64,000 nucleotides of DNA, taken from NCBI RefSeq assembly GCF_003334385.1, contig NZ_QOWN01000006.1; one strand, written 5' to 3'. Positions 60,019-64,000 of this stretch are shown here, in pieces (position 1 is the first letter of the stretch; each line of letters begins with the position of its first letter). The stretch comes from Escherichia coli. GTDB lineage: Bacteria; Pseudomonadota; Gammaproteobacteria; Enterobacterales; Enterobacteriaceae. Position numbers and translations under genes: made by a program. Below the pieces are notes generated by a model. It was not told the origin of the DNA. It was given only the letters and a program-made list of their open reading frames with translations, and did no database searches.

Positions 60019-60094
60019 TCCTCTGTAGTTCAGTCGGTAGAACGGCGGACTGTTAATCCGTATGTCACTGGTTCGAGTCCAGTCAGAGGAGCCA
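60019..60094 (+). tRNA. asnV: tRNA-Asn (GUU), integration site of island 2
   Basis: Identical to asnT; followed by an integrase leader region homologous to the HPI one. Confidence 0.95.
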
Positions 60095-60255
60095 AATTCA
60101 AGTTTTCATGCTTATCTGTACGTCTCTGTTTGTTTAGGATTCAGTAAGTTAGCGTGAAAATCCTTGCCGGTGCGTATCTGGTTTTATCTCCGTATCGGGA
60201 TAATTTGGTGGTCAGATCTGAGGTCAGTTTGGTTCGATTCTGGAGTGACCCCCAA

Positions 60256-61518
60256 ATGTCTTTAAACGATTCTAAAATCCGCAAGTTAAAACCCTATTCC
60301 CGTCCGGTAAAACTCTCCGACTCTCACGGTCTGTATCTGCTCGTCAATCCGGGTGGTTCACGCATCTGGTATCTCAAATATCGTTTCAACGGAAAAGAAT
60401 CCAGAGTCAGTCTTGGCGCATACCCGCTGGTCTCACTGGCAGAAGCCAGGCAACAGCGCGACGGTATCCGCAAGTTACTGGCGCAGAATATCAACCCGGC
60501 GCAGCAGCGCATGGCAGAGAAAGCCGCCTGCTCCCCTGAAAAGTGCTTTAAAGCGGTGGCGCTGGCCTGGCACAAAACCAACAAAAAATGGTCGGCTGAT
60601 TATGCCGCCCGTATTCTCGCCAGTATGGAAAACCATATCTTCCCGGCGGTTGGTCATTTGCCCGTTGCCAAACTTAAAACGCAGGATTTCACTGCCCTGC
60701 TGAGGGTTATTGAGGATAAGGGCTTTCTGGAAGTCGCGTCCCGCACGCGGCAGCAACTCAGCAACATCATGCGCTATGCCGTATAGCAGGGGCTTACCGA
60801 AAGCAATCCGGCGCAGCATCTGGATGGCGTTGTCTCCTCCCCCGTAAAGAATCACTACCCCGCGTTACCGCTGGAGCGGTTGTCCGAACTGCTTGGCCGC
60901 ATCGGTGACTATCAGCAGGGCCGGGAGTTAACCCGGCTGGCGGAGGTGCTGACACTGCACCTGTTCATCCGTTCCAGCGAACTGCGTTTCGCCCGCTGGA
61001 GCGAGATCGATTTCAGGCACAAAATCTGGACCATCCCCGCCACCCGCGAGGCCATCGACAAAGTTCGGTTTTCGGGGCGTGGCGCAAAAATGCGTACTCC
61101 GCATATCGTACCGCTCTCCCGCCAGGCGATTGCCCTTCTGAAACAGATACAGGAGCTTTCCGGCCATCTGGATCTGGTGTTTCCCGGCGATCATAATCCG
61201 TACAAGCCAATGAGCGAAAACACAACCAACCGGGCGCTGCGCCTGATGGGGTATGACACGAAAACTGAAATCTGCGGGCATGGACTCAGGGCAATGGCCT
61301 GTAGCGCCCTGGTGGAGTCGGACCTGTGGTCACGCGATACGGTGGAGCGGCAAATGAGCCACCAGGAGCGCAACAGCGTGCGGGCGGCATATGTGCATAA
61401 AGCAGAGCATCTGGAGGCCAGAAAGGCCATGATGCAGTGGTGGTCGGATTATCTGGATGTGTGCCGCGAGGGGTATGTTGCGCCGTACATTTATGCCCGG
61501 CAGCATAAGGCAGCCTGA
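60256..61518 (+). pseudogene. int: P4-family tyrosine integrase, full length (420 codons) but interrupted by a single in-frame TAG at 60784-60786
   Basis: 60256-60783 and 60787-61518 are in the same frame and both resemble the HPI integrase; the HPI copy has CAT (His) at the corresponding codon. Confidence 0.75.
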
Positions 61519-61550
61519 ATCAGAAATAGCGTAAATCATTAAAACTGGAA

Positions 61551-61587
61551 AAGCAGATCCTGATTGACCGGGATCTGCTTTTTTTGT
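61551..61587 (+). terminator. Intrinsic terminator after the island-2 integrase
   Basis: aagcagatcc tgattgacc ggatctgctt followed by T7. Confidence 0.7.
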
Positions 61588-61637
61588 TGATAGATATTGC
61601 CGTTTTTTTGTTATTATCAATCGGAAAACATCTATAA

Positions 61638-62074
61638 ATATTTGGCCCCAAATAATTTTGGGTGAAAACCAATCAATGAACTACTTATTAATAGGTAAGT
61701 ACCAGAAATTATTCAAGTAGAGTATTTTCAGGCGATTGCCTATTAATAAATATATTATTGATAGATAACTACCTTCTGTGATTTGCCCGCAAATCACAGA
61801 AGATGAAAAGCTATCAATACGTGATATTTTCACGGAAATGCCAATTAATACTCCAGAATATCTCCTGACCCTATACTCTGAAGCCTGTAAGAACTACATC
61901 AGATACCAGATAGATATAAGTCTGAAATTATTTGGTTTCCAATAACTCAGGTGAAAACCTATCAATTCATCTGTTTTCAATAGACAGCCACCTTCCGTGA
62001 TTCACATGTTAATCATGGAAGGTGAAAAGCTATCAATAATCGACATTTCCACGGAATTACCACTTAATACATCC
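61638..62074. repeat. Four-copy array of a composite element: palindrome followed by GTGAAAA(C/G)C(T/A)ATCAAT
   Basis: Motif copies at about 61661, 61801, 61950 and 62021; palindromes tatttgg-cc-ccaaata, tctgtgatttgc-cc-gcaaatcacaga, ttatttgg...ccaataa, ccttccgtgatt...aatcatggaagg; copies 2 and 4 share a further 35-bp extension. Confidence 0.7.
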
Positions 62075-62955
62075 CCAAAAATGCGCCATAAAATACCGGA
62101 CAATCTTTCCTGATACAGATTATCACTGCACCAGCTATATAAAGACAAAATAATCTGCCCCCGTCCTGGATAATCTGCTATCTGCGCCAGCGTCCCGCCG
62201 CTCTACCTGTTCAGTGCTGCGCCAGTACCTGGCCCTTTAGTTTTTGGCCCTTTCAGGTCAGGCGCTGTTCCCCTTATCGCCCCCTTAACCTTTATGACCC
62301 TTTCCCTTTCTGGCGCAGCCAGTTTATTTGGAAATGCTCCATGACAGTCTGCACCAGACTGTATTTTCACCACAGGATAACAATCACAAAGTGCAAAAAA
62401 TAACATGAAGCACCGAAGATTCTTAATTCATATGAAGCAGGTTATTATGCCAAAAACCGTCGCAGCATTTTTATAAAATCATGAGGCATCCTGAGACCAT
62501 ATAATATATGTCACAGGATACGGAAAAACACAGAGAGAATTATTCAGATATAACCCTGTGCCAGAATTAATGTGATGCCCCGGTGAATTAACATTTTAAA
62601 ATTTTCCCAGCCCTGTAGTATTGGTAAAAATGATTGAAACACCTGTTATTAACAGAGAGCATTTCGTGTGATTACAGGGGTAATCACTATAATATTCCGA
62701 CAAACTATATTGGTTAAGCAGGAGAATCTGATCTGTTGATATTTATTCGTCATGCTGTAACGATATTTTCACAATATAAACCCGTTCGCCCCCTGCGCCA
62801 GATCCGGAACATAGGGTACGATAAATCGCTGTCGTTACGCAGTAACGTACTATTTTGAGCCATTCATGAATTCAGTCATTCCCTCTTCCAGCGGTAGCCA
62901 TACACCTGTTTCACCCAACGCCCGCGCCCGTCGCCATGACCCAGATCCGTCGCCG

Positions 62956-63759
62956 TCAGCGCCAGGGATTCCTTTTCCTGAATCCCTGCGCCAGATAATG
63001 GCGGATCGCATCCTGCGCCCAGGCATAGCGCAGGGAGTGAGGGGAAAATTCCCCCTTCAGCCCCACCTTAATGACCTGTTTGTGCCAGCTCTCCAGCGCC
63101 ATTTTGAGATCAGGCTTGTCGATCAGCCTGCCATTGTGTCGATCCGCGACCAGTAAGGACTTTTCCAGAGCCTTCCTGACTGCGCCAGTATCCAGAACTG
63201 TCGTATGGCGGGGACGCCCACCTTTGGTGCCAAACACCACTTTCAGCCGGTTTTCCCCGCGCTCAATGGCTTTCAGCCACGTTTTCAGCGACAGTGAACT
63301 CTGTACCGCTTCCTGCGAGCGTAACCCCATCAGTCGCGCGATCTCCAGCGCCGCAGCCAGCCCCGCATCCTCAGCGCGGGCTTTCTCCATAACCTGCTGG
63401 TAATGTTCCGGCGTAATGGCGCGGCGCGTACCGTTGCGTGAAGCGCCCGACACTCCCAGCGCCTTATTGGTTAGGCGTGGATGCTCCACCACCTGCCTGC
63501 GTCCAGCCTGTCTCAGCACGGCCTGCAGTGCCGCCATATCGTTTTGCAGCGTTCGTAAACCAATATCCTGCTCCAGCCGTTCCTCAATGTAGCATTCGAT
63601 ATGGCGAACCCTGATCTGCTCCACCCGCTGGATCTGGATATTCAGCGCCCGTAAATGTTCACTGAACCGTTTTGTAATATGGATACGGTCATTCACTGTT
63701 TTAAAGCTGCCGCCCGCTTTCTTCGCCAGCGCCTTCATTTCACTGCTTAATTTACTCAT
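62956..63759 (-). CDS. Recombinase-like protein (tyrosine-recombinase-type R and HxLRY motifs; canonical catalytic Tyr region not evident)
   Basis: 267-aa ORF with AGGGG RBS; LMGLRSQEA and HSLRYAWAQ motifs; ORF ends about 9 residues after HxLRY. Confidence 0.45.
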   Translation of the reverse strand: MSKLSSEMKALAKKAGGSFKTVNDRIHITKRFSEHLRALNIQIQRVEQIRVRHIECYIEERLEQDIGLRTLQNDMAALQAVLRQAGRRQVVEHPRLTNKALGVSGASRNGTRRAITPEHYQQVMEKARAEDAGLAAALEIARLMGLRSQEAVQSSLSLKTWLKAIERGENRLKVVFGTKGGRPRHTTVLDTGAVRKALEKSLLVADRHNGRLIDKPDLKMALESWHKQVIKVGLKGEFSPHSLRYAWAQDAIRHYLAQGFRKRNPWR

Positions 63760-64000
63760 GAATCCCCTGCAACATAAACAAACAGTCTCCGGCGTGTGCT
63801 GTTTGGCTGCGCCAGAACGATACCTTCACGCCGGAGTGGCTGGTTGTTGAGGTTTAGGGAGTTTCAGGCTGTACGCGGTACAGACTGCCTGACGAAGCAG
63901 GGGTATCTCCGGGGCTTCTAGCCCATAAGCGCTAACTTAAGGGTTGAACCATCTGAAGAATGCGACGCCTCGGTGCCTCGTTAAGACGATGCCTCGCGTT

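Follow-up and report, generated by a model that had tools for sequence, protein, structure and literature searches.

An amber-interrupted P4-type integrase at the asnV tRNA gene of Escherichia coli, probably the left end of an eroding island

Among the islands carried by Escherichia coli at tRNA-Asn genes, those that come closest to the locus described here are the high-pathogenicity island (HPI), found at asnT with the ybt, irp and fyuA genes as its cargo, and the colibactin (pks) island. In typical strains of phylogroup B2 an inversion has placed the latter at asnW next to yeeO rather than beside cbl-nac, and in UTI89 it is found at asnV (PMC8209727, whose names for the four asn copies are used throughout). 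The pks integrase of strain 536 (ECP_RS10050, WP_000055670.1) is P4-type and specific for asn tRNA genes, and the HPI integrase belongs to the same family and has the same target tRNA. The subject of this report is a further gene of this kind, located at asnV near the right end of a 64,000-nucleotide (nt) stretch of E. coli DNA (contig NZ_QOWN01000006.1 of assembly GCF_003334385.1; hereafter the window), which would encode a 420-residue integrase were it not for an amber codon, TAG, at position 177. Given that the HPI and pks integrases are only ~70% identical to it (70% and 71% at the amino acid level, respectively), it can be assigned to a third asn-specific P4-type lineage. In our view, the gene is with high probability a plain, fixed pseudogene at the asnV-proximal left end of an island that has been immobilised and is eroding.

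The amber allele as such is not new. Codons 176-177 likewise read GTA TAG in copies of this gene, 99.5-100% identical in nt, that follow a tRNA-Asn gene and are themselves followed by the second recombinase gene in ATCC 8739 (ECOLC_RS08850 at asnV and ECOLC_RS08935 at asnT), AMSCJX03 (HXS77_RS08595) and F1005 (R8832_RS09205), and RefSeq calls the gene a pseudogene (‘internal stop’) in all three of these TAG genomes, the ones that were inspected; public annotation thus already treats the allele as a pseudogene, and in this respect it is already known. The lineage also has intact members, namely WP_025380446.1 of UTME-3 (at asnT) and the proteins P0034 and P0022, which are 88-97.5% identical to the asnV integrase and share its island backbone. 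They differ in that they are uninterrupted, have Gln at position 177, and are accompanied by cargo consisting either of tssG/F/I with a PAAR gene or of defence-like OLD-TOPRIM/AAA and HEPN genes.

From its ATG to its TGA, the asnV frame contains a single internal stop, the TAG at codon 177 (Table 1). With this stop masked, its translation matches thousands of 420-residue integrases (best E = 7.6e-278) and contains three Pfam domains, Arm-DNA-bind_3 (PF13356, residues 3-87), Phage_int_M (PF22022, 98-191) and Phage_integrase (PF00589, 232-384), with hmmscan E-values of 3.8e-24 to 2.6e-16, so that a chance open reading frame can be dismissed. The masked protein also matches PHROG 1 ‘integrase’ at 1.3e-60, and the three domains together make up the architecture of the P4-type enzymes. 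Past the stop, the segments GHGLRAM and RAAYVH can still be read and line up with the same motifs of the pks and HPI integrases, a correspondence of aligned sequences only. What the gene does not have is an uninterrupted frame joining its DNA-binding and catalytic domains. The TAG separates residues 1-176 from the catalytic domain and, because it falls within the central domain, the whole of the catalytic domain is lost from the product. The asnV integrase is therefore a P4-type member by descent, yet a pseudogene. Both the frame and the domains bear out an earlier interpretation made from the letters of the window without database searches (the sequence-only reading), which had described a 420-codon P4-type integrase following the fourth tRNA-Asn, with TAG at codon 177 and otherwise in one frame.

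How old and how widespread is the amber allele? An exact-match search of 5,426 complete E. coli genomes with a 59-mer centred on codon 177 found it in 266 of them, that is, in 266 of the 347 complete genomes that carry this integrase lineage, and TAG is hence the commonest allele of its lineage among complete E. coli genomes. The hosts and sources of these genomes include humans, pigs, poultry, cattle, dogs, the giant panda and water. Could the TAG be a sequencing or assembly error in this particular record, as the sequence-only reading had allowed with respect to position 60784? Only a single base separates it from a sense codon; on the other hand, an identical 59-mer is present in 266 independent complete genomes and the full gene is 100% identical to its F1005 copy (and 6 nt away from those of AMSCJX03 and ATCC 8739), which leaves this explanation with a practically negligible probability. 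The same distribution, together with the presence of TAG in both ATCC 8739 copies, speaks against the proposal that the inactivation was recent, and shows the allele to be old and widespread.

The sequence that preceded the amber codon can be read from its relatives. Among the 120 closest cluster representatives, residue 177 is Gln in 91, His in 20, Arg in four, and Lys, Pro and Trp in one each, the remaining two having an alignment gap. The closest alleles, whether intact or independently broken, read GTT CAG at codons 176-177, and since these are the nearest alleles with a sense codon, the ancestral pair is taken to be Val-Gln. A nonsense change at codon 177 (GTT CAG to GTA TAG) would then have inactivated the integrase and removed its catalytic domain. 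The TAG lineage in addition carries two replacements, S14Y and V230E, that are unique among the 120 homologues (Ser in 103 and Val in 117 of them, respectively) and that fit relaxed constraint.

If the gene is dead, how did its amber allele become so common? In ATCC 8739 there are two islands, at asnT and asnV, and the integrases of both have the TAG (L013:39122-40384 and L013:12583-13845, respectively). The two islands are ~99% identical over the segment from the tRNA to the integrase and 85-98% identical over the rest of their shared backbone, and the double TAG implies that an integrase which was already dead had been duplicated or copied by gene conversion. Across the TAG alleles there are seven polymorphic sites, five synonymous and two non-synonymous, and nearly all of them are shared with intact alleles. 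A dN/dS-style test of constraint within the TAG alleles was consequently uninformative, given so few sites and almost all of them shared. The shared polymorphism and the mosaic structure of the neighbouring spacer (see below) do indicate recombination rather than new mutation, and it follows from these two features that the TAG allele has been moved by homologous recombination and not by its own activity. The surroundings of the locus are in keeping with this. Whereas the first 15 kb of the window (1-15000) matches ordinary E. coli genomes at 99.6%, its right half is matched at no more than ~97.4% by any complete RefSeq genome of the species, and the segment at 44-60 kb (shiA, amn, yeeN, yeeO, cbl, nac) reaches only ~97% at best among the 5,426 genomes; that an integrase identical to that of F1005 should lie next to it is consistent with recombinational transfer. 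Judged by these identities, the window is a mosaic, and the contrast between its left and right parts fits the recombination hotspot already known around the HPI (PMC2606025). In our reading, the dead allele, once formed, was passed on by descent, and homologous recombination carried it from strain to strain as well as between the copies at asnT and asnV.

Some observations weigh against the view that the gene is simply dead. Apart from the stop, no TAG allele that was checked has a damaged frame, which would also fit a gene expressed by readthrough, and the polymorphism among TAG alleles is mostly synonymous, although, as just mentioned, at sites mostly shared with intact alleles. It should also be borne in mind that the island itself runs past the 64-kb window, so that its right end and its cargo are both outside. 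The intact remainder nevertheless says little, because the TAG lineage is shallow (at least 99.5% identity) and second lesions are not yet to be expected.

It is still worth considering that the amber codon might be leaky or suppressed, for instance by a near-cognate tRNA-Gln that would restore Gln, leaving the island mobile at low frequency. Besides the frame being otherwise open in all TAG alleles examined, such a scenario could draw on the ancestral residue being Gln and on the base following the TAG in the integrase frame, which is C; a C after TAG makes a weak context for termination. However, programmed readthrough would entail a stop conserved across diverged homologues, and not one of the 120 homologues is interrupted at position 177; the stop is found in a single shallow lineage, and every other homologue has a sense codon there. 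Nor would a functional readthrough product be expected to carry unique radical replacements, S14Y and V230E, at conserved positions, to lie beside a frameshifted partner recombinase, as it does in the window, to have an IS3 insertion sequence (IS) at the integrase in some relatives, where the gene is annotated in two pieces, or to belong to an island that in F1005 has shrunk to ~5.5 kb without an attR-like repeat. No recoding signal is evident either. The check for an amber-suppressor tRNA put forward in the sequence-only reading, confined to the window, turned up a tRNA-Ser(CGA) (15156-15245, minus strand; ARAGORN) with a wild-type anticodon. We take this gene to be serU, which in its CUA mutant form is the amber suppressor supD; serU/supD, the sole suppressor locus visible in the window, is thus excluded as a suppressor here. 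Taken together, these points render a suppressible or readthrough stop, one of the options left by the sequence-only reading, very unlikely.

A different way of reconciling a truncated gene with a majority allele would be that the truncation is itself useful. Perhaps the 176-residue N-terminal fragment, comprising the arm-binding domain and part of the central domain and produced by transcription reading through from the tRNA, blocks related asn-tRNA integrases at their arm sites. The Arm-DNA-bind_3 domain does lie wholly upstream of the stop, and the repeats of the leader recur in conserved form in the HPI, in pks and in the present lineage. And yet S14Y alters a conserved residue of precisely this domain, and the high frequency of the TAG allele is explained equally well by hitch-hiking and recombination, so that we assign the blocking fragment only a slight chance of being correct and prefer the plain fixed pseudogene.

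Is, then, the amber allele necessarily a dead end? Besides it there is an intact sister allele (P0001), known from metagenome and draft-genome contigs (L007-L012), that reads GTA TGG and thus has Trp at position 177, a residue found there in none of the other 119 homologues. It encodes an integrase at L007:10001-11263 and belongs to asnT-type islands beside yeeJ. With the TAG allele it shares the derived GTA at codon 176 as well as the T as first base of codon 177, and in the allele tree TAG and TGG alleles form two reciprocally monophyletic clades. The 59-mers for GTA-TGG, GTA-CAG, GTA-CGG and GTT-TAG had no exact megablast match in the 5,426 complete genomes. The shortest path between the codons is CAG to TAG to TGG, and the route from CAG via CGG and TGG to TAG is one step longer; parsimony would thus slightly favour a reversion. 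It is conceivable, although we lean somewhat towards the opposite, that the Trp-177 integrase arose from the TAG pseudogene by natural reversion and is thus an island integrase brought back to life, in which case the amber allele would not have been a dead end. Were this true, the reversion would imply selection to regain integrase function.

With the state of the gene considered, the identity of the island can be addressed. The sequence-only reading had suggested that this might be the colibactin island, and hence that the gene might be a mutated pks integrase. There are certain grounds for it: the gene occupies the same kind of position, on an asn tRNA lying beyond the HPI, its leader is similar, and UTI89 does carry pks at asnV (PMC8209727). 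In a direct comparison with the island of strain 536, however, this identity had to be rejected. The pks integrase is intact, has 423 residues, is 71% identical in amino acids and 73% in nucleotides, and is followed after 280 bp by clbS; moreover, pks in 536 is located at asnW beside yeeO with the asnW-asnU-asnV segment inverted, and the integrase of the window is at asnV. The proposed alignment of 60.0-64.0 kb to a pks reference, run against strain 536, gave nothing past 61464, as 61465-64000 had no match in the parts of the 536 island that were compared and no clb homology. A pks-type integrase (family 1 or 2 of PMC8209727) followed by the genes clbS to clbA is therefore not what the window contains. 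At least 80% of 60019-64000 is covered by 394 genomes, every one of which carries the other type of island; among the matches listed, this segment aligns to an integrase and a second gene with an integrase domain, not to clb genes, and no clb genes were present in the inspected regions of three relatives with this integrase (AMSCJX03, F1005 and ATCC 8739), the closest relatives carrying Rhs genes and IS elements in their stead. The accompanying premise, that the tRNA-Asn copy beside cbl-nac hosts pks in many B2 strains, is at odds with the typical B2 arrangement at asnW beside yeeO exemplified by strain 536 (PMC8209727). That this is a pks island is, all in all, extremely improbable.

The window offers its own HPI for comparison, and the integrase of that island at asnT, which has a similar leader, is dead as well, albeit for a different reason. 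Instead of a nonsense codon, it has suffered an internal deletion of 347 bp (nt 124-470, after 16596; gene at 16474-17389) that shifts the frame relative to the intact gene of TUM13773. Both asn-tRNA islands of the window are thus left without a working integrase.

Four tRNA-Asn(GTT) genes are contained in the window (16237, 55786 on the minus strand, 57610 and 60019; ARAGORN), and they have the same sequence throughout. They were assigned as asnT, asnW, asnU and asnV from the adjoining genes (mtfA; yeeN/yeeO; yeeO/cbl; and nac, respectively), and annotated relatives display the same order. In agreement with the claim that there are four identical targets of which asnW and asnU are empty, these two genes have no insertion, the segment 55001-62771 being collinear, without large gaps, with the island-free flanks of AMSCJX03. 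By contrast, the integrase lies directly 3′ of asnV, the 3′ end of which forms the core of the left attachment site (attL), and in relatives a 20-nt repeat of this tRNA end forms the right one (attR), so that a second tRNA-Asn island does begin here, as the sequence-only reading had it. The leader between tRNA and integrase holds GGTCAG(A/T)(T/C)TG repeats and a GGAG Shine-Dalgarno sequence. It aligns block by block, GGTCAG repeats and the GGAG...ATG region included, with the leaders of the HPI in the window and of pks in 536, the latter also being of similar length, and the mean column identity over the HPI, pks and two related islands amounts to 84%. The leader architecture shared with the HPI integrase was therefore described correctly, and from these alignments we infer that the GGTCAG repeats are putative arm-type integrase sites.

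Table 1. Coordinates of features at the asnV locus, numbered from the first base of the window
Feature	Position	Strand	Basis
tRNA-Asn(GTT), asnV copy adjoining nac	60019..60094	+	ARAGORN; Rfam tRNA, 72.6 bits
Leader, tRNA to integrase ATG, 161 nt	60095..60255	+	Alignment to leaders of HPI, pks and two related islands
P4-type tyrosine integrase pseudogene, 420 codons	60256..61518	+	Frame, homologues, Pfam domains
Amber codon 177, GTA TAG (ancestral GTT CAG, Val-Gln)	60784..60786	+	Frame and homologue alignment
Intrinsic terminator of integrase gene	~61547..61585	+	Hairpin of -25.6 kcal/mol, z = -8.7, then T-run
AT-rich spacer, two ~124-nt direct repeat units with long hairpins	61661..62070	.	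Repeat search: families D1, D2; inverted repeats I1, I3
Recombinant spacer patch, asnT-type haplotype inside asnV-type flanks	62154..62850	.	Block identity, 60 columns
Second recombinase gene, Phage_int_SAM_2 + Integrase_1, 294 aa when intact	62876..63759	-	Pfam from intact relatives
EFASI RNA (RF02957), IS-truncated	63814..63940	-	59.3 bits versus gathering score 51.2
IS421/IS186-type (IS4 family) end, terminal 77 nt, starting CATAAGCGCTAACTTAAGGGTTG	63924..64000	.	Same junction in AMSCJX03

Downstream of the integrase and its terminator, the AT-rich spacer (Table 1) contains in each of its ~124-nt units a hairpin with arms of 31-36 nt and boxes of the form GGTGAAAA(C/G)CTATCAAT, which are present in relatives too. 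These repeats (61661-62070) match no Rfam family above threshold, and the weak matches of their hairpins to microRNA families in Rfam (E = 0.13-0.41) were put down to chance. The spacer is ~10% diverged between genes that are themselves nearly identical. A hypervariable mechanism was considered for this and rejected, as the blocks form a mosaic of asnV-type and asnT-type haplotypes. Specifically, from ~62334 to 62850 the patch is 98-100% identical to the asnT copy of ATCC 8739 (82-95% in 62154-62333), and in comparison with the asnV copies of locus L001 and ATCC 8739 the patch reaches 43-92% identity and the sequence on either side of it 100%. The patch 62154-62850 has this asnT-copy haplotype even though asnT in the present genome is occupied by the HPI.

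The second recombinase gene has also been damaged. Relative to its intact ATCC 8739 counterpart (WP_000041054.1), it has a 1-nt deletion at ~62978, in codon 261, as a result of which the last 34 residues of the protein are replaced and its GHGDGRGRWVKQVYGY segment is lost; in AMSCJX03 the gene is annotated as ‘frameshifted’. An EFASI RNA lies 55 nt upstream of the start of this Integrase_1 gene and belongs to its family by score as well as by position, EFASI RNAs being said to lie upstream of integrase genes (PMC12370729, quoting Rfam). Uninterrupted EFASI copies in relatives score 94-119 bits, and the copy in the window is interrupted at 63923/63924, where it meets one end of an IS, a break that is visible in the alignment. 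In AMSCJX03 the corresponding element is ~1.34 kb long, has matching inverted ends, an ~11-bp target duplication (GGCTTCTAGCC) and an annotated IS421 transposase. At EFASI this IS is missing from most relatives, and in ATCC 8739 the second recombinase is intact and EFASI uninterrupted, in contrast to the window, where both are damaged. The frameshift and the IS421 insertion would thus represent further decay of the neighbourhood. Given that the integrase is truncated, the second recombinase frameshifted and EFASI cut by IS421, we infer that the island's own enzymes can probably no longer excise it and that it is eroding where it was inserted.

What might the island carry? Its relatives share a backbone made of the integrase, the spacer, the Integrase_1 gene, EFASI, a toxin-antitoxin pair, an HTH_35 gene, a gene for ~155 residues, and C4/isrK RNAs. 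AMSCJX03 is 99.66% identical to the window up to base 64000 and has the attR 20-mer 17.8 kb from the tRNA (in asnT copies this repeat is found beside yeeJ). Past the junction it continues with IS421, C4/isrK RNAs, an Rhs core protein, an NTF2-fold immunity gene and IS1. ATCC 8739 likewise carries an Rhs core protein and an NTF2-fold immunity gene. Because AMSCJX03 shares the IS junction with the window, the cargo past 64 kb is, extrapolating from that genome, most likely an Rhs toxin/immunity module and not a set of colibactin genes. The F1005 island is cut short before ldtA-cobTSU. In UTME-3, the cargo consists of tssG, tssF, tssI and a PAAR gene and thus of an accessory type VI secretion module. 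Intact members of the family have cargo loci at L014:15616-21263, L016:18010-21263 and L020:34801-42128, and the contents recorded for intact members are a 1,468-residue protein with an OLD-like TOPRIM/AAA ATPase, HEPN_LA2681 with DUF8371, and tssG-tssF-tssI-PAAR. The cargo of the intact islands is flanked by C4/isrK RNAs, and the gene content suggests that this backbone may serve more generally as a vehicle for defence and type VI accessory modules. A literature search for type VI or Rhs islands at asn tRNA genes returned nothing specific.

In itself, the amber-interrupted integrase at asnV is of little importance, as it provides one more instance of a tRNA-linked island whose recombinases decayed after integration, with the cargo becoming fixed in the chromosome. 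For annotation it does call for some caution. Since at least three lineages of asn-specific integrases, with ~70% mutual identity, occur in E. coli, an integrase at a tRNA-Asn gene beyond the HPI should not be taken as a sign of pks. Of minor interest is that a dead allele should be the commonest in its lineage and should have been copied between asnT and asnV islands, and its Trp-177 sister allele may, tentatively, be a natural case of nonsense reversion.

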